Source: Candidatus Micrarchaeota archaeon (lineage in GTDB: Archaea > Micrarchaeota > Micrarchaeia > Norongarragalinales > SBBD01). From it: a stretch of 64,000 nt of DNA. How positions within the stretch are numbered: the first letter of the stretch is position 1; each line of letters opens with the position of its first letter. Below, in pieces: positions 1,962 through 22,356 of the stretch. The notes under the pieces are model-generated. The model was not told the origin of the DNA. It did not search any database and saw only the letters and a list, made by a program, of their open reading frames with translations. The stretch spans positions 196-64,195 of the forward strand of contig JBBSVW010000073.1 in assembly GCA_038046605.1 (NCBI GenBank), read 5' to 3'. The position numbers and the translations under genes are program-made.

Positions 1962-2213
1962 GTGATAAATATGGCAAATGTTACCCTATTCATTCCGGAT
2001 GAACTGAAAAGGCGGATGAGTAGGCACAAGGATATCCGCTGGTCAAGTGCAATCAGGACCCTAATTGAGGATAGGCTGGATATGTATGAGGAGTCCGAAA
2101 TACTTGCACAGGGCAGCAGACTAACCGATAAGGACGTAGCTTTCCTAACTCAAAAAGTGGATGCGGCAACACGCAAACACGTAAAGGCGCTAATGAATGC
2201 GAATCGTAATTGA
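1962..2213 (+). CDS. Ribbon-helix-helix (CopG/VapB-like) antitoxin
   Basis: Small basic protein, N-terminal VTLFIPDELKRRM beta-strand typical of RHH. Overlaps the downstream PIN gene. Confidence 0.55.
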   Translation: MINMANVTLFIPDELKRRMSRHKDIRWSSAIRTLIEDRLDMYEESEILAQGSRLTDKDVAFLTQKVDAATRKHVKALMNANRN

Positions 2214-2607
2214 TGCCAACATTTTGTTTGCCGCACTTCTCCGCAAGGGCTTGACCCGGCGCCTATTGTTCAATTCAGACATCAAATTGCTAGCGCCTGG
2301 ATTTATCCTAGCCGAGTTCATAAAGCACAGGAACTATTTGATTGGAAAGTTCGATCATAGCCCTGACGAATTCGATGAACTATCCTCTAATATACTTTCG
2401 GTAATCGAGCTTGTTCCCGACAATGAACTCGAACCCTATCTGGGCGCCTCCAAAACACTCGTTACCGACTTGAAGGATTGCCTATATATCGCGGTTGCAT
2501 TAAAGGAAAATGCCGCAATTTGGTCGAATGATGGTGGGATGAAAACGCAGCGCAGGATTAAGGTTTACACAACGGATGAACTCGCATCGGAATTTGGACT
2601 GCTATAA
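2197..2607 (+). CDS. vapC: PIN-domain ribonuclease (VapC-like toxin)
   Basis: MRIVIDANIL N-terminus with Asp6. Further acidic residues (TDLKD, SND) at PIN positions. 136 aa; translationally coupled to the upstream RHH gene. Confidence 0.75.
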   Translation: MRIVIDANILFAALLRKGLTRRLLFNSDIKLLAPGFILAEFIKHRNYLIGKFDHSPDEFDELSSNILSVIELVPDNELEPYLGASKTLVTDLKDCLYIAVALKENAAIWSNDGGMKTQRRIKVYTTDELASEFGLL

Positions 2608-2609
2608 AT

Positions 2610-2621
2610 AATGCTCCAAAC
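2610..2621. repeat. Direct repeat copy of tRNA-Glu 3' end (atgctccaaacg), att-like
   Basis: Exact 12-mer identical to 4729-4740, the tRNA-Glu 3' acceptor/T-stem region. Confidence 0.5.
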
Positions 2622-2657
2622 GAACTCGGTGGGCAAAATACTAATGCTCTAATCCAA

Positions 2658-3356
2658 TCAGTTTGAGCGCATTCCAACTTTCCTGGCTTGAATAAATCCA
2701 AAAAATGCATCGCTGTGTGCAATTGCCTCGGTTAGCGAATTGAACATAAATCCTTCCTTTTGCAGTTGCCTAAGTCCGCGCTTCGGATCCACCTTGGTTT
2801 TATGGATTGCCAAGGAGCGCTCTACTGAACCCCCCTTGGTGCCTACAATATTCCTTAGAATCCCCCTAAGCCGCATTTGCTTTTGGAATATCCTGTTAAC
2901 GGCTTCTGTTTTAGGAGATTTTGGCTCAACTCTTTTGAGAAGATCTACATTAATGGTCGCTATCCCACTTTTACGTACAGTTGCATTTACCGATTTCCAA
3001 CCTTGCGCCCATCCAAGCTCCCAATTCCGCAGATTGTGATATTCCTGCCTTACTTCCGGAGGCAACATGGAAAAAAAGCCAAGCTCCCTGGCCCGCTTCT
3101 CGATCTGCATTCGCCTAATCGTCCTTTCCGTCCTTTGCTGTTCCATTTGTCTTGTCAATACGCGAGGGTGTATTTCGAAAGTTCTTACGACTACTTCCCC
3201 TTCCCTGCGGCCTGGCCTAATTGCTACTGCTTTTACCCCGGTCGAAGTAAATTGCCCGCGATTACTTCTTTGCATTATCGTAAGCGTCCCGGTCGGGAGT
3301 GTTTCATACTTAGGTTCCCGTTGCCTTTTGCCGCTTCTTGGAATTATCCTACCCAT
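2658..3356 (-). CDS. Hypothetical basic (Arg/Lys-rich) protein, candidate cargo of an integrated element
   Basis: Longest ORF in the interval. Bounded by att-like repeats at 2610 and 3419. No recognisable catalytic motif. Confidence 0.4.
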   Translation of the reverse strand: MGRIIPRSGKRQREPKYETLPTGTLTIMQRSNRGQFTSTGVKAVAIRPGRREGEVVVRTFEIHPRVLTRQMEQQRTERTIRRMQIEKRARELGFFSMLPPEVRQEYHNLRNWELGWAQGWKSVNATVRKSGIATINVDLLKRVEPKSPKTEAVNRIFQKQMRLRGILRNIVGTKGGSVERSLAIHKTKVDPKRGLRQLQKEGFMFNSLTEAIAHSDAFFGFIQARKVGMRSN

Positions 3357-3386
3357 TTCAAAATTAATGGTCGAAAGACTATATAA

Positions 3387-3460
3387 TCCAAACGGAGCAT
3401 TAGCTGGTAAAAAACGGATGCTCCAAACGAGAAACAGTAGCCACGGAACGGATGCTCCTA
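3387..3460. repeat. Cluster of degenerate tRNA-Glu 3'-end copies (att scars)
   Basis: tccaaacggagcat (3387-3400), acggatgctccaaacg (3414-3430) and acggatgctcc (3447-3460) all match the tRNA-Glu 3' end, atgctccaaacgg. Confidence 0.5.
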
Positions 3461-3504
3461 TTTTTGCAATAGGAATATGGGTGAAAAGTTATATTAACTT
3501 GCTC

Positions 3505-4170
3505 TTAAGAAATTTTGGCTTCCTTATCTCCTTTCATATCAAGAAATAGGTCGTTGTTTACGAGAGCCATTAATGCCCCATTCAAGTATAAGTCTTCAGA
3601 ATATTTACTTGAAAAAAGTATTTCTAAAAACTGCTTTTTTGCAAATTTGTGCGAGGCGTCAACTGCTTCGGAAGCCGTACTTCCATTTATTAACGATTTT
3701 GGGATTTGATTCGAAGCCTCCAAAACCGGCCTTGCCATTGGATCCTTTAACGGCCTTGCGATGTATTCGTACTGAAATGGAATTATGAACTCTTTTTTGT
3801 AACCGATGAAAGCTCGCCCCCCTTTCATAATAGATGCTTCGCCTAACTCCTCTAAGCAATTACAGGCTCTTATGAACGTCACCGTATTTGCTAAAGCTTC
3901 TGCCGAAGAGAGTGTAATCACTTCTTCAAGATTATGCCCACAATAGCTATCCTTGCTGCCATGGCCATTAAGAAATACGAAATCGGGTTTTACTGAATTG
4001 AGTCTTCCAATAATATTTTTTTGGGTTACTTCATCTCCCCTAACATCGGTTACATTATAGCCGGAACTTTTCGCTTCTGTAATAATTTCCTCGCTCCAAA
4101 AGAATAAGTAGTTTGTGCCATTGTCATAATTAGGGCGGGCAATCAGTATCTTTTTCATGAATTTAATCAC
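3505..4170 (-). CDS. Compact caspase/hemoglobinase-fold-like putative cysteine peptidase (His-Gly ... Ala-Cys dyad)
   Basis: FVFLNGHGS followed ~35 aa later by FIRACNC. N-terminal KKILIARPNY beta-strand start. 221 aa. Confidence 0.45.
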   Translation of the reverse strand: MIKFMKKILIARPNYDNGTNYLFFWSEEIITEAKSSGYNVTDVRGDEVTQKNIIGRLNSVKPDFVFLNGHGSKDSYCGHNLEEVITLSSAEALANTVTFIRACNCLEELGEASIMKGGRAFIGYKKEFIIPFQYEYIARPLKDPMARPVLEASNQIPKSLINGSTASEAVDASHKFAKKQFLEILFSSKYSEDLYLNGALMALVNNDLFLDMKGDKEAKIS

Positions 4171-4387
4171 TTAGAGTAGCTGAAAGGCGGGGCATCTGTT
4201 TAATGAACTCCAGTTGCATATCCACTATTGCCTTGCCCGTATCGGTTTCCTTCCGTACTTCGCTGATTAATTCCTCCTTTGTATACGTTCCATGACTTCC
4301 AATGGAAAAGCCCACATTAGGGGGCATTGTCTGAAGCCGGGCCACAACTAATTTCTTTATTATTTCAGCATATGCCATCTTTACCAC
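4163..4387 (-). CDS. Small hypothetical protein (74 aa), operon partner of the His-Cys protein
   Basis: 8-nt overlap with the downstream gene. No known motif. Confidence 0.4.
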   Translation of the reverse strand: MVKMAYAEIIKKLVVARLQTMPPNVGFSIGSHGTYTKEELISEVRKETDTGKAIVDMQLEFIKQMPRLSATLSD

Positions 4388-4392
4388 CTGTT

Positions 4393-4626
4393 CTACAATA
4401 AACTTGCCTCTTTTAAGAATTTAAGGATTTTGTTCCCCTTTTCGGTATTATTGCTTATTTCGAGATATGCAGAAAACCAAGAATAGGTTTGCTCATCCAC
4501 AACCGCTATAATTTCCCCCCTCAGGGGCCCAGGTACTGATGCAAATAGCTTCAGGAAGCTGGGTCTGAGAGTTTCAAGATCCTCGCCCATATTATCATCC
4601 ATTCGGGATACTAGAACTCGCAGCAA
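4393..4626 (-). CDS. Small hypothetical protein (77 aa), first gene of three-gene cassette
   Basis: 5-nt spacing to the next gene on the same strand. Acidic N-terminus. Confidence 0.4.
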   Translation of the reverse strand: MLRVLVSRMDDNMGEDLETLRPSFLKLFASVPGPLRGEIIAVVDEQTYSWFSAYLEISNNTEKGNKILKFLKEASLL

Positions 4627-4693
4627 ATATATAATCCAGTAGGCTTTGCTGAGTCTTTAGGCTGCGGAAGGATGTACCGAAATCTCTCTTTTC

Positions 4694-4715
4694 TTCCAAA
4701 CGGATTTACAAACCG
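4694..4715. repeat. Degenerate copy of tRNA-Glu T-arm/3' end (tccaaacggatttacaaaccg)
   Basis: 18/21 identity to 4732-4752 of the adjacent tRNA-Glu. Confidence 0.45.
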
Positions 4716-4728
4716 AAAAGAAAAAAAA

Positions 4729-4886
4729 TGCTCCAAACGGGATTTGAACCCGTGTCGAAGGCTTTTTCCACCAAAAGAAATCATCCTTAATTTCTTTCTT
4801 TTGGACCCCTAGTTTTCTTTCTTTCCAAAAGAAAGAAAAATGGGGTTGAGAAGCCCTTATCCTTGACCGAGCTAGACGATTGGAGC
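4729..4886 (-). tRNA. tRNA-Glu (anticodon CUC) with ~83-nt intron at canonical 37/38 position (approx 4764-4846)
   Basis: Hand-folded. Acceptor GCUCCAA/UUGGAGC, U8, A14, D-stem GUCU/GGAU, anticodon stem AGGGC/GCCUU, loop UUCUCAA, T-arm ACGGG-UUCAAAU-CCCGU, A73. CCA not encoded. Confidence 0.75.
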
Positions 4887-4962
4887 AGCTGATCGGGACT
4901 ATATTCTGGTCCAGCACATTATTAATTATTGGTCGGCAGCTTGAAAATCAGTTTCTTTTGCC

Positions 4963-5247
4963 CTACAAGAGCGCCTGCCCATCCTTCGTGCAGAATTTCG
5001 TGTCCAAAGGATATTCCGTTTTGCATTTCTGGCAAACAAGGAATAGTTTGGTGCCATCATCCGGGCAGAATTTCATGCCAAGGTCAGCAATTTTCTTCTT
5101 GCATTTTGGGCATTGCCTAGGGCCTGGAGCCTTTACGCCTTGTATTCCCTTATTCACCGCCCCGGAAACGCCCGAAGAAATTCCGCCCGCCGCCTTATTG
5201 CTCAAATCCGTTGTGACTCTTCCAACAATACTATCAAATATTCCCAT
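4963..5247 (-). CDS. Double zinc-ribbon domain protein
   Basis: Two CPxC...C..DG motifs (CPKC...FCPDDG; CQKC...FCTKDG). Confidence 0.45.
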   Translation of the reverse strand: MGIFDSIVGRVTTDLSNKAAGGISSGVSGAVNKGIQGVKAPGPRQCPKCKKKIADLGMKFCPDDGTKLFLVCQKCKTEYPLDTKFCTKDGQALL

Positions 5248-5331
5248 ATGACCACCAAAAAGCTACGAATTATGGATTATTAATTATTGGGTTTCTTCTA
5301 CTTTGGGGGCCTATTTCTAAAGTGTTGTGCC

Positions 5332-5898
5332 ATGGCAAAAATCTACACCAAAACAGGCGACTCCGGCGAAACCTCGTTCTATGGGGGGAAACGCATCCCA
5401 AAGCACGATCTGCGGCTGGAGGTATACGGTTCACTTGACGAGCTTAATTCCATTCTGGGGATGGCAAGGTCGCTATATGATCTGGGGGCAAAAACCGGCA
5501 TGCTGAATGATAGCGCTGAAATTGAGCCGCTCCTGAAAAGCCTCCAGGATGACCTATTTGTGGTGGGTTCGGATCTAGCAGCTCCGGAACACAACAAAAT
5601 CGCGCGGGTTTCCCCCAAAATGGTTGAAAGGCTCGAAAAGGAAATAGATGCGCTTGATTCCAAGCTGCCGCCACTTGCCAATTTCATCCTCCCAAGCGGC
5701 ACAATTGCGGCATCAACAATCCATCATGCAAGGACAGTTTGCCGTAGGGCGGAAAGAAAACTCTCAGATCTCAACTCCAAGGAAAAGATAAATCCGGAGC
5801 TATTGAAATATATCAATAGGCTCTCAGATCTACTATTTGTAATGGCAAGATCCGAGAACCATGCCGCTGGCTTTGGGGATGAGGTTTGGAAACCCTAA
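5332..5898 (+). CDS. PduO-type ATP:cob(I)alamin (corrinoid) adenosyltransferase
   Basis: IYTKTGDSGETS...R.EVYGSLDELNS N-terminal signature of the MMAB/PduO family. Start moved to internal ATG at 5332. Confidence 0.75.
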   Translation: MAKIYTKTGDSGETSFYGGKRIPKHDLRLEVYGSLDELNSILGMARSLYDLGAKTGMLNDSAEIEPLLKSLQDDLFVVGSDLAAPEHNKIARVSPKMVERLEKEIDALDSKLPPLANFILPSGTIAASTIHHARTVCRRAERKLSDLNSKEKINPELLKYINRLSDLLFVMARSENHAAGFGDEVWKP

Positions 5899-5915
5899 CC
5901 TAATAAAAAAAAATA

Positions 5916-6094
5916 TGCAGGGGAAGGGATTTTCATGCCTTGCCGCTAAATTCGGCGGAGCCGCAAAAGTGTTTTCTTTGGCGGCGCCATCGCCTTTCTT
6001 TTTCAAAAGAAAGGCAAGGCGATTTGAACCCTCGAACCCCTAAGGGATCAGACCCTGAATCTGACGCATTTGACCAGTCTTTGCTACCCCTGCA
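5916..6094 (-). tRNA. tRNA-Leu (anticodon CAG) with ~94-nt non-canonical intron in the T-loop/T-stem junction (approx 5929-6022)
   Basis: Acceptor GCAGGGG pairs perfectly with CCCCUGC at 5917-5923; A73 at 5916. D-arm GCAA...UGC, anticodon arm UCAGA-UUCAGGG-UCUGA, long variable arm. T-stem GAGGG + UUCAAAU, then intron, then CCCUU. Confidence 0.6.
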
Positions 6095-6180: not shown

Positions 6181-6630
6181 TCAACGGTTGATTGGCGGGG
6201 TTGTAAAATTTCTTTCCCCAAAATCGCCCATGCAAATCAAATCCCTATTGCTAACTATGCATTTTCCCTTCAATTCCCCGCGTGGGTTTTGCACTGCGCA
6301 GGCATCCCCATCTGATTTTCCCTTGCAGGCAGTCAACGCTTCTTGCATCCTTTGCTTTTGCATCTGCGCTCTTTGTTCATCCGTCATGTTCCCAAATGTT
6401 CCGTTCCCAAAGCCGCCAATTCCGCTTCCGTTCCCCCCAAAGCTCCCATTGCGAGGCCCTCCAAATGTCCCATTCCTAAATCCGGAGCCGTTGCGATAGC
6501 CATCTCCTGGCCTTCCCTGATATGGCGCGCCATTCCCTCCGTCCTGATTGCCATTTTCGGTGCATCCCATGAGAAGGAATGACGATGCGATTATTGCCAT
6601 TGTCAAAATCCGAAATGTTATTTTTTTCAC
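6181..6630 (-). CDS. Gly/Asn-rich lipoprotein
   Basis: Signal peptide with LLMGC lipobox. Repetitive GNGS/GFGNGT low-complexity region. Cys-containing C-terminal domain. Confidence 0.5.
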   Translation of the reverse strand: MKKITFRILTMAIIASSFLLMGCTENGNQDGGNGAPYQGRPGDGYRNGSGFRNGTFGGPRNGSFGGNGSGIGGFGNGTFGNMTDEQRAQMQKQRMQEALTACKGKSDGDACAVQNPRGELKGKCIVSNRDLICMGDFGERNFTTPPINR

Positions 6631-21296: not shown

Positions 21297-21782
21297 CTAA
21301 TCTCTTAAATATTCATACATTTTAGGCATGTTGTTAGGGTCGTCGAAAATCTTCCGTAAACGATACTTCACGCCTGCCACAGTTCTCAACGCACGGTTTG
21401 ACAAATCCCTTCGCCCTGGCTTCCAGCAAGGCTCCGCCGGGTTAAGCTCAGGTGCGTACTTCGGAAAACGAATTAAACGAAAACTCTTGCGGTGATTGTG
21501 AATGAATTCGTCCACGCGTTTTCCTTTGTGGCAAGGCCCGCTGTCAACAAACAAAGCAACCTTGTTAAAACGCCCGACGACCTGTTTGCAATGCTGAACG
21601 AACTGCTTCTGTTTTTTTCTCTTGAAAAAAGTGTAAACCAACGCCCGCTTCGTACGAGTGGCAAACACGTTCGTATACTTCCGCTGGAAGTTTATGGGCG
21701 CCGTGGGGCGGCTCCCTTTGGGAGCCCAGCCTCGCGTGACGTTGGGAAGAAGTCCAAATGAGGCCTCATCCTCGCAGCCCAC
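21297..21782 (-). CDS. IS630-family transposase DDE_3 catalytic part (OrfB)
   Basis: ALFVDSGPCH...YAPELNPAE (D...D...E, cf. YSPDLNPIE). Confidence 0.7.
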   Translation of the reverse strand: MGCEDEASFGLLPNVTRGWAPKGSRPTAPINFQRKYTNVFATRTKRALVYTFFKRKKQKQFVQHCKQVVGRFNKVALFVDSGPCHKGKRVDEFIHNHRKSFRLIRFPKYAPELNPAEPCWKPGRRDLSNRALRTVAGVKYRLRKIFDDPNNMPKMYEYLRD

Positions 21783-22356
21783 AACAAAACCTTTTTTTCG
21801 GTAGTACCGCGCGATTCGCCGCGCTTTTTTTTAAAAGCGTCCTGCTCTTCTTTGCCAGGCGATTTGTAATGCCTCGGCCTCGGTACAAGCAAGGAAAAAC
21901 CGCAGGCGATAAGCAATCGCCAGACGTGTTGCGGCGTGTACGTCACGCCGAACTTTTTCTTGATTAACGCGAGGACTTCTTTCGAAGTCCATAAACGCGA
22001 AGGAGCGCGAGGGTTGCCTTTCTCAAGAATTTTTAGCAAATGCAGGCGCTGTCTTTTCGTAAGGTGCGGCGGGCGGCCTTCTTGTTTTACTGCGCGTGCA
22101 GCCTGTTGACCTTTTTCTGCGAAACGGTGCAGAATGCTTACGACGGTTTGCTTTGACGCGGCGCACGCTTCCGCAACGGCGTCCAAGGATTTGCCTTGTT
22201 TACGGTGGATGGCGATGAGCCATCGGAGTTTGGATTTTGCGTTGGTTTCTGCCGCCATGTGTTGTTTAAGCTCTTGAAGTGAAACGTGCGGCATGAACAT
22301 TTCTCCACGAGCGAGATCCCAAGTCATACAATTATTAGGAAGTATGAATATATAAG
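21304..22356 (-). mobile_element. IS630 (Tc1/mariner)-family insertion sequence, ~1.05 kb, imperfect terminal inverted repeats cttaaatattcatac / cttatatattcatac
   Basis: Two overlapping transposase ORFs (HTH then DDE_3), IRs at both ends, locally elevated GC. Confidence 0.7.
21692..22327 (-). CDS. IS630-family transposase N-terminal part (HTH/winged-helix, OrfA)
   Basis: HTH_Tnp_IS630-like region. Overlaps OrfB by 91 nt. A7G slippery run (aaaaaaag on minus strand, ~21792-21800). Confidence 0.7.
   Translation of the reverse strand: MTWDLARGEMFMPHVSLQELKQHMAAETNAKSKLRWLIAIHRKQGKSLDAVAEACAASKQTVVSILHRFAEKGQQAARAVKQEGRPPHLTKRQRLHLLKILEKGNPRAPSRLWTSKEVLALIKKKFGVTYTPQHVWRLLIACGFSLLVPRPRHYKSPGKEEQDAFKKKRGESRGTTEKKVLLWAARMRPHLDFFPTSREAGLPKGAAPRRP

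Follow-up and report, generated by a model that had tools for sequence, protein, structure and literature searches.

Predicted BHB introns in the tRNA-Glu(CUC) and tRNA-Leu(CAG) genes of a Micrarchaeota lineage, and signs of intron gain and reshuffling among its relatives

Archaeal tRNA introns are usually shorter than 100 nt (PMC4033280). They are bounded by BHB motifs, occur at the canonical position 37/38 as well as at non-canonical positions, and are cut by EndA (PMC4090602, PMC4033280). In Micrarchaeum (ARMAN-2), 56% of the tRNA genes are disrupted and relaxed BHB motifs are cut by an EndA of the epsilon2 type (PMC3239211); loop-bearing EndAs of other DPANN archaea likewise cut such relaxed motifs (PMC3239211, PMC5829648). 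In the Thermoproteales, as summarised in PMC4090602 and PMC4033280, homologous introns move between tRNAs, and the mechanism of this transposition is not understood, as reviews state (PMC4090602). The disruption of tRNA genes has also been linked to integrating elements, in a model developed for the tRNA-Thr of Caldiarchaeum (PMC3293823), and PMC4090602 cites the idea of Randau and Soll that introns act as a protection. A literature search of incomplete coverage returned no description of cross-tRNA intron families for Micrarchaeota or DPANN.

Here we describe two intron-bearing tRNA genes in a 64,000-nt stretch of Micrarchaeota DNA, the whole of which is referred to below as the window. Like other archaeal BHB introns, those of the window comprise one at position 37/38 and one at a further site, here the T-loop; their motifs are of the 3-4-3 or of the relaxed type, and the spliced products are normal cloverleaves. 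Unlike most of them, the introns considered here span 83-139 nt, at the top of the usual range below 100 nt or above it, the upper helix of the tRNA-Glu motif is replaced by a junction of two hairpins, and splicing is predicted. With ‘Candidatus Micrarchaeum acidiphilum’ ARMAN-2 (PMC3239211, PMC3488258, PMC5829648) they have in common the phylum-level group, varied intron positions and relaxed BHB motifs, and one related tRNA-Glu gene (that of locus L018) holds two introns, as is seen in ARMAN-2. The window lineage differs from ARMAN-2 in being of a neutral-groundwater type, and many other Micrarchaeota have the same two genes without introns. Since disrupted tRNA genes were already known from Micrarchaeum (PMC3239211) and cross-tRNA intron families from the Thermoproteales, what is added here is modest, namely a closely spaced evolutionary series at a single locus.

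The tRNA-Glu(CUC) gene occupies positions 4729-4886 of the minus strand (158 nt with its intron). Its 5' exon (4847-4886) covers tRNA positions 1-37, its 3' exon (4729-4763) covers positions 38-73, and an 83-nt intron at the canonical position 37/38 lies between them at 4764-4846. The gene matches the Rfam tRNA model (RF00005) over its full length with 40.2 bits (gathering score 29) and an 85-nt insertion past the anticodon, and ARAGORN in intron mode called it as tRNA-Glu(ctc), placing at the canonical site an 83-nt intron of exactly the sequence that had been quoted; together with splicing in silico, these calls bear out the original prediction of the gene and its intron. In default mode, ARAGORN called no tRNA in the window. 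Folded alone, the intron forms two hairpins (-29.8 kcal/mol, z=-3.8). The first, of 40 nt (4806-4845, minus strand), reads CCCC-AU-UUUUCUUUCUUU / AAAGAAAGAAAA-CUA-GGGG and has a perfect 12-bp inner stem, UUUUCUUUCUUU/AAAGAAAGAAAA, clamped by CCCC/GGGG; the second (4771-4804, minus strand), CCAAAAGAAAGAAA...UUUCUUUUGG, has its purine arm first.

The second gene, tRNA-Leu(CAG), lies at 5916-6093 on the same strand (178 nt with its intron). Its D arm, anticodon arm and long variable arm are all intact, and its T-loop is broken after UUCAAA by 93 nt (5930-6022, minus strand), which places the intron at position 59/60 and not in the anticodon loop at 37/38. The fold of this intron has a z-score of -4.7. 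Because the intron sits in the T-loop, the gene reaches only 17 bits in Rfam, below the gathering score, and received no call from ARAGORN; it was recognised by reading of the strand, and ARAGORN does call its spliced product. The hairpin GCCUUUCUUUUGAAAAAGAAAGGC (5992-6015, minus strand) is the element of this intron that had been compared with the tRNA-Glu intron, and GCCTTTCTTTTGAAAAAGAAAGGC was located at these same positions, 5992-6015 of the minus strand, inside tRNA-Leu(CAG). At 83 and 93 nt, the two introns stand at the long end of the usual range below 100 nt and not beyond it (PMC4033280), so that their description as unusually long does not hold.

In-silico splicing produced a 75-nt tRNA-Glu(ctc) and an 85-nt tRNA-Leu(cag), both called as such by ARAGORN and both canonical cloverleaves. 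Aligned without gaps, the spliced tRNA-Glu is identical to intronless orthologues at 69 of 75 positions and the spliced tRNA-Leu at 81-82 of 85. That both loci are missed by standard tools (ARAGORN in default mode for both, with 17 bits in Rfam for tRNA-Leu) and that the inserts are low-complexity sequence could suggest pseudogenes or assembly artefacts, that is, chimeric joins or decayed tRNA genes with unspliced junk insertions. We regard this as highly improbable. The precursor genes recur identically in independent assemblies of the window organism, tRNA-Glu in four (L028-L031, the record names of which suggest a groundwater sample) and tRNA-Leu in two (L028, L029), and the L018 type of tRNA-Glu is likewise identical in three assemblies of its own. 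The exons are intact, with 92-99% identity to intronless orthologues and no indels; the flanks of the splice sites that form the BHB are conserved while the intron bodies diverge; and no second tRNA-Glu(CUC) or tRNA-Leu(CAG) was seen in the window, where Rfam and ARAGORN in intron mode detected no further tRNA of any kind. We hold it highly probable instead that both are ordinary archaeal BHB introns in functional Micrarchaeota tRNA genes, and that they belong to a young, lineage-specific set which was gained and then rearranged. As default tRNA finders miss both genes, the tRNA complements of such MAGs will be under-called.

Two other intron types were considered and rejected. A self-splicing group I or group II intron is contradicted by the lack of a match to any Rfam intron family even at E<=10, and 83-93 nt is too short for one. 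Introns of euryarchaeal tRNA-Trp encode a C/D box sRNA. Such an RNA has a box C (RUGAUGA) and a box D (CUGA); in neither of the two window introns is UGAUGA or CUGA present, and no snoRNA family scored above threshold; apart from tRNA-Glu itself, the Rfam matches over the introns were sub-threshold miRNA and sRNA noise.

Both genes, then, yield a cloverleaf product and form a BHB motif, strict in one case and relaxed in the other. The tRNA-Leu motif has a 3-4-3 core, in which a single C·A mismatch precedes the upper helix. Its lower helix is the T-stem GAGGG/CCCUU, its central helix of 4 bp pairs U54-A57 of the T-loop (UUCA) with UGAA near the 3' end of the intron, the bulges are AAU and AAU, and the upper helix is GCCUUGCC/GGCAAGGC; at -45.6 kcal/mol, this fold lies 0.4 above the MFE of -46.0. 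The tRNA-Glu motif consists of the anticodon stem, a 4-bp helix UUCU/GGAA with one G·U pair, and CAA and AAA as its 3-nt segments; on the upper side, two hairpins meet in a three-way junction in place of a simple helix. The BHB fold that had been proposed for this intron is thus compatible with the sequence as regards the helix and the 3-nt segments, but at -30.9 kcal/mol it lies 4.6 above the MFE of -35.5, and we class the motif as relaxed. Among the relatives, the T-loop intron in tRNA-Glu of L018 repeats the tRNA-Leu layout (UUCA/UGAA, bulges AAU and UAU), and here the fold with the BHB enforced equals the MFE fold; in the 37/38 introns of the L018 and L023 tRNA-Glu genes the central helix has three pairs only. 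The cut positions within the bulges were set by the textbook BHB rule.

On this model, the tRNA splicing endonuclease (EndA) would excise the intron of each pre-tRNA, and a tRNA ligase would seal the exons; a Pfam search of the window (main ORFs of at least 130 aa and a few shorter ones) returned no tRNA_int_endo (EndA) domain. In tRNA-Glu, the anticodon stem, the UUCU/GGAA helix and the two 3-nt segments would expose the cut sites, and the body of the intron would consist of two self-contained hairpins. In tRNA-Leu, the universal UUCA of the T-loop would find its complement, UGAA, in the intron itself, and the 3-4-3 core would thereby be complete. As one half of this motif is the universal T-loop and the other half moves with the intron, the same intron should be able to reside in two different tRNAs at position 59/60. 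A shared processing or structural element in the hairpins, as had been suggested, is not supported, because the signal is the BHB at the splice sites, made of exon sequence and intron ends, and the hairpin cores differ among orthologues.

The 23-mer of the tRNA-Glu 3' exon was found only in Candidatus Micrarchaeota assemblies among the GTDB representatives, and 14 metagenome contigs from JGI contain it as well; these matches come from a more remote lineage. The two tRNA genes are separated by a Cob(I)alamin adenosyltransferase gene (about 5329-5898), the product of which matches a protein from a ‘Candidatus Micrarchaeota archaeon’ MAG at NCBI with 100% identity. By the identity of this protein, the syntenic relatives rank as L018-L022 (82%), L023 (75%), L024 (65%) and L025 (58%), and the sample amounts to approx. 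104 kb of in-clade sequence with ten tRNA genes. In L024, both tRNA genes are intronless. In L025, tRNA-Leu is intronless and tRNA-Glu has no 37/38 intron, having instead an 81-nt intron with relaxed junctions in the region of the D-loop. L023 carries a 66-nt intron at 37/38 of tRNA-Glu and a 139-nt intron at 59/60 of tRNA-Leu, and L018 has a 66-nt intron at 37/38 and a 92-nt intron at 59/60 of tRNA-Glu, with a 134-nt intron in tRNA-Leu; three independent assemblies carry the double-intron gene in identical form. At 17 more distant Micrarchaeota loci, 14 have a full, intronless tRNA-Glu gene; the count leaves out L003, which breaks off within the anticodon arm, L010, which was not listed separately, and L011, a gene other than Glu(CUC).

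The introns of these relatives are related to one another within and across the two genes. The 37/38 introns of the L018 and L023 tRNA-Glu genes are orthologous to that of the window (z=7 and 3.7), the three having the flanks CCCCAUUUUUC...GGGGUCCAAAAG...GAAAA in common; their MAFFT alignment comprises three sequences, two of them near-identical, and is not in structural register. The tRNA-Leu intron of L023 corresponds to that of the window plus approx. 50 nt in the loop of the GCCUUUCUU/AAGAAAGGC hairpin. The tRNA-Leu intron of L018 ends in a segment that corresponds, in reverse-complement orientation, to nt 1-48 of the window tRNA-Leu intron (45/48, score 81), and over approx. 65 nt its start resembles the window tRNA-Glu intron (score 38, z=6.4). 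The clearest link across tRNA identities is that of the 59/60 intron of L018 tRNA-Glu, which is homologous to the T-loop intron of the window tRNA-Leu (score 51, z=11, reached in none of 500 shuffles, with controls at or below 26; BLAST 1.7e-9) and has in common with the T-loop introns of tRNA-Leu the blocks GCCUUGCC, UUUCUUUU, AAAAAGAAAG, GCGAUGGC-CCGC and GCCGCCGAAU. At the level of the clade, therefore, similar introns occur in tRNAs of different identity, as they do in intron families of the Thermoproteales type. No intron sequence was found copied outside tRNA genes in the window and the loci searched, and among viral contigs there were no matches to the tRNA-Glu 3' exon and two chance matches to the core of the T-loop intron, in GC-rich coding DNA.

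Ranked by protein identity, the genomes show a pattern of presence and absence from which we infer that the intron set arose in the ancestor shared by the window genome, L018 and L023; the alternative would be loss in L024 and L025. Later, in the L018 lineage, a T-loop intron would have been copied into tRNA-Glu, and an independent gain in the D-loop would have occurred in L025. The tRNA-Leu intron would have undergone inversion, nested insertion into a hairpin loop and replacement of a segment. Throughout the set, only the flanks of the splice sites would have remained constant. The 59/60 copy in L018 tRNA-Glu is approximately 65-70% identical to the tRNA-Leu introns by our estimate, and the orthologous tRNA-Leu introns are 92-94% identical to each other; being the more diverged, this copy may stem from an unseen member of the family elsewhere in the genome. 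The spread of introns that had been proposed for this locus is thus supported, in the form of gain, copying between tRNA genes and reshuffling in related genomes as judged from sequence comparison, by the cross-tRNA homology seen in L018 and not by the palindrome discussed below.

As in the Thermoproteales, homologous introns in this clade reside in tRNAs of different identity, which implies late copying at the DNA level with targets defined by the BHB. The present case differs in that the lineage belongs to the DPANN, that there is one clear transfer only (an intron of the tRNA-Leu T-loop type into tRNA-Glu, at the same tRNA position), and that inversion, nested insertion and chimeric introns occur alongside this transfer. 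The series comprises four states, with both genes intronless, with one intron in each, with two introns in one gene, and with inverted, nested or swapped introns. As these are found at one syntenic site, gain and rearrangement can here be dated and put to the test within the DPANN.

The original prediction had rested on a palindromic core common to the two window introns. Hairpins of the form CUUUCUUUUG...AAAGAAAG are indeed present in both, and the 10-mer CTTTCTTTTG occurs four times on the two strands of the window (approx. 0.5 expected), with three of the four occurrences inside the 176 nt of the two introns. When the two introns were aligned, as had been proposed, the best local alignment was CTTTCTTTTG-(G/AA)AAAGAAAG, one 10-mer plus its complement, with a score of 28. 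Dinucleotide shuffles reached this score in 18/2000, 7/2000 and 5/500 cases (z about 3), but such shuffles destroy a trait common to both introns, namely hairpins in which one arm is all pyrimidine and the other all purine. In a control that keeps the composition of the arms, each of eight related introns was compared with reversed and complement-only versions of the others; scores of at least 28 were obtained in 3 of 56 comparisons (2 of 14 for the window tRNA-Glu intron alone) and the maximum was 29. As some of these controls reach or exceed the observed score, the match between the window introns is not clearly above the background of low-complexity sequence, and for this pair the similarity is essentially no better than such sequence would be expected to give. 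The shared palindrome, although present, by itself adds little.

Comparison with the orthologues points the same way. The 37/38 introns of tRNA-Glu in L018 and L023 resemble none of the T-loop introns (z<=0), so the shared core is not conserved in this intron. Their hairpin arms, UUUUUCCUU/GGGGAAAGA, include G·U pairs, and they lack the core (CCUUCUAAGGGGAAAGAAG). The UUUCUUUUG/AAAGAAAG core is thus a peculiarity of the window lineage's copy of an orthologous hairpin. Most likely, the match is a by-product of the style in which these hairpins are built and not a conserved functional element. The identity would have arisen from polypyrimidine and polypurine arms by drift towards A/T or by slippage, the latter put forward conditionally since TRF found no tandem-repeat signature; otherwise, its source would be at most a distant modular homology.

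A true and recent homology seems to us possible but doubtful; in that case, a copy of a hairpin module would have passed, through gene conversion or insertion, between the 37/38 intron of tRNA-Glu and the T-loop intron lineage of tRNA-Leu, and the palindrome would be a trace of this exchange and not of convergence. The 10-mer and its complement do stand in the same hairpin register in both introns, and CTTTCTTTTG occurs only once in the remainder of the window on both strands; yet the score of the pair lies within the range of the low-complexity controls, hairpin 1 is positionally orthologous to the L018 and L023 hairpins that lack the core, and blastn-short reported no match between the two window introns at E<0.05. 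Also in its favour is the resemblance already noted between the window tRNA-Glu intron (all of hairpin 1 and the beginning of hairpin 2) and the 5' half of the L018 tRNA-Leu intron. Because its score of 38, reached in none of 500 shuffles, stands against controls that do not exceed 29, some real exchange of modules with the tRNA-Glu intron is possible.

Hairpins with a polypyrimidine and a polypurine arm are the usual building style of these insertions. A scan for a pyrimidine-only arm of at least 8 nt together with its complement found five hairpins in the window, against 0.33 expected from block shuffles, and the two longest are those of the introns. Of the 13 such hairpins in the 104 kb from the clade, nine are located in one of the ten tRNA genes or no more than 40 nt away, positions that account for 2.3% of this DNA (P=1e-12, or 4e-4 if non-coding DNA is allowed a 10-fold enrichment); with the ten genes all belonging to a single syntenic locus, the hairpins do not count as independent observations. 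The Micrarchaeota loci outside the clade (142 kb) contain three. Within the clade, the hairpins are found in introns at three positions (D-loop, 37/38 and 59/60) and, in L024 and L025, 3-4 nt before the point where the mature intronless tRNA-Leu begins. The insertions may owe this style to common ancestry, to a palindrome-generating mechanism, or to selection in favour of self-contained arms that cannot mispair with the exons.

The concentration of these hairpins at tRNA genes, their excess in the window relative to shuffles and to loci outside the clade, and their presence at three intron positions and in tRNA leaders could also mean that they are a small element which targets tRNA genes, either a miniature mobile element or a palindrome made on insertion that seeds introns and leaders, or that they have a function of their own. 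We consider this unlikely, as there are no copies of the intron sequences outside tRNA genes in the window and loci, no target-site duplications and no conserved termini, and the arm sequences vary among orthologues. Several members fold no better than shuffled sequence (z of -1.1 and -1.6 for the L018 and L023 tRNA-Glu introns, -0.4 for the D-loop intron and -0.85 for the leader of L025), and the association counts come from the single locus mentioned above. A function of their own could be, for example, protein binding, insulation of folding or stabilisation of the excised circular intron. A related proposal, rather speculative and in our judgement only slightly less unlikely, is that the clade may hold an active, tRNA-gene-specific insertion family of hairpin modules, with a T-loop member that carries the portable UGAA and with modules swapped across positions and 5' leaders. 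If true, this portable half of a splice signal would let an intron colonise any tRNA at 59/60, and the clade would be a live case of the birth and spread of BHB introns outside the Thermoproteales. We retain the reading of ordinary BHB introns, gained and then rearranged, built in a common hairpin style.

The tRNA-Glu gene had, in addition, been described as an integration target, and this was upheld. The window contains three exact copies of the final 11 nt of this tRNA, CGTTTGGAGCA, each of them on the minus strand (4729-4739, 3419-3429 and 2612-2622), forming an att-like array of exact direct repeats (2612-4739) around a cassette of four ORFs and approx. 2.1 kb (2623-4728). Five of the seven copies of the 8-mer CGTTTGGA in the window lie within this region. 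The sequence past the copy at 3419, TCCGTTTTTTACCAGCTAATGCTCCG, is homologous to the native 3' flank of tRNA-Glu in L025. The exact repeats of the 3' end and the displaced ancestral flank together identify the 3' end of tRNA-Glu as the insertion site of a small cassette. Flanking direct repeats are thus present, as in elements that target tRNA genes, and no integrase or recombinase was recognisable in the cassette or around the tRNA. The two larger cassette ORFs had no match in Pfam, PHROG, NCBIfam or PDB sequences, and the two small ones had none in Pfam or NCBIfam. In line with models of disruption by integration, the window tRNA-Glu combines an intron with direct repeats of its 3' end that flank a cassette; it departs from them in that no integrase was detected in the cassette and no evidence ties the latter to the gain of either intron. 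The cassette recurs in L032, where its 217-aa protein has 56% identity and 48-nt direct repeats, 2,166 nt apart, flank it, with no adjoining tRNA.

Upstream of tRNA-Glu, a scan for sigma-70 promoters and terminators was uninformative, the host being an archaeon. An A/T box, CCAATAATTAATAAT, lies 32-46 nt upstream of the gene (4918-4932, minus strand), and an exact second copy is present at 5276-5290, upstream of a zinc-ribbon ORF. The relatives have CCAAT-ATTATAAA at the site upstream of tRNA-Glu, and by its position and conservation the box appears promoter-like.

The last 11 nt of the tRNA-Glu gene (CGTTTGGAGCA) are present in three exact copies on the minus strand of window 2612-4739, one forming the 3' end of the tRNA gene (4729-4739) and the others located at 3419-3429 and 2612-2622. 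These att-like copies flank a cassette of ~2.1 kb with four ORFs of about 65, 71, 217 and 232 aa, all without known relatives, and no integrase was detected for the cassette of window 2612-4739. The ancestral 3' flank of tRNA-Glu, as found in L025, a syntenic contig from a relative, comes after the copy at 3419. A homologous cassette was found in another genome, L032 (GCA_041305345.1), between 48-nt direct repeats (4305-4352 and 6471-6518; 92% identical and 2,166 nt apart), with no adjoining tRNA. The 48-nt repeat contains the inverted pair GCCCTAT...ATAGGGC and possibly belongs to a small RNA gene.

Right after the oligo-T stretch of tRNA-Glu, at window 4690-4728 (-), lies a degenerate copy of the T-arm and acceptor end of this tRNA, AAATCCGTTTGGA; its alignment to tRNA-Glu has one gap and 13 identities in 14 aligned positions, a score reached by 13 of 2000 shuffles. 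This copy is held in the loop of a pyrimidine-purine hairpin formed by UUUUCUUUUC and GGAAGAAAAG. On the other side of the gene, the minus-strand sequence CCAATAATTAATAAT forms an exact 15-nt repeat, with one copy 32-46 nt upstream of tRNA-Glu (4918-4932 (-)) and the other (5276-5290 (-)) 29-43 nt upstream of a zinc-ribbon ORF (4963-5247 (-)). CCAAT-ATTATAAA is kept upstream of tRNA-Glu in relatives, and the repeat probably represents a shared promoter box of the BRE/TATA type.

The tRNA genes of the relatives differ in the position and make-up of their introns. In L025, tRNA-Glu (5770-5925 (-)) is without the 37/38 intron, but its D-loop region (about 21-23) is interrupted by an intron of 81 nt, with hairpins of the CCUUUUUCUUUC/GAAAGAAAAAG type and a relaxed junction; ARAGORN mis-called this gene as an intron-bearing tRNA-Pro. 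In the tRNA-Leu intron of L023 (gene at 5044-5267 (+)), the loop of the first hairpin is enlarged by an insertion of ~50 nt, itself consisting of two hairpins, and the tRNA-Leu intron of L018 (gene at 4220-4438 (-)) has an inverted 48-nt segment and a replaced 5' half. The strand of tRNA-Leu relative to the Cob(I)alamin adenosyltransferase gene differs as well, being minus in the window and L018, and plus in L023, L024 and L025.

Pyrimidine-loop-purine hairpins were also observed outside complete introns. Upstream of the intronless tRNA-Leu genes of L024 (6621-6643) and L025 (6665-6691), such a hairpin is separated by 3-4 nt from the mature 5' end and occupies the place expected for a leader or promoter. 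Another one, CTTTTCTTCCTTCTAAGGTAAAAAAAG, is located at the extreme start of contig L018 (9-35), beside a stretch that contains TTCGAAT; here the contig boundary may have truncated one more intron-bearing tRNA, of which this hairpin would be the end.

Among other genes of the window, one for a PIN_2 toxin (2197-2607 (+)) stops 5 nt short of the outermost att-like repeat and is preceded by an 83-aa ORF (the pair spanning 1962-2607 (+)), which probably encodes its antitoxin and appears as RHH_12 in the gene tables of L025 and L028, the latter an independent assembly of the same organism. Other toxin-antitoxin pairs (Polbeta/HepT) are found on that side of tRNA-Glu in relatives. An IS630-like transposase (21297-22327 (-)) is split into two overlapping ORFs, with HTH domains (21692-22327) and DDE_3 (21297-21782); the gene either has suffered a frameshift or relies on a programmed one. 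Window 31796-62763 is a long stretch of glycosylation and sugar-nucleotide genes, encoding epimerases, UDP-glucose dehydrogenase, GT2 and GT4 transferases, PMT-like mannosyltransferases, a flippase, an aminotransferase, and RmlD-like and GDP-mannose-dehydratase-like proteins.
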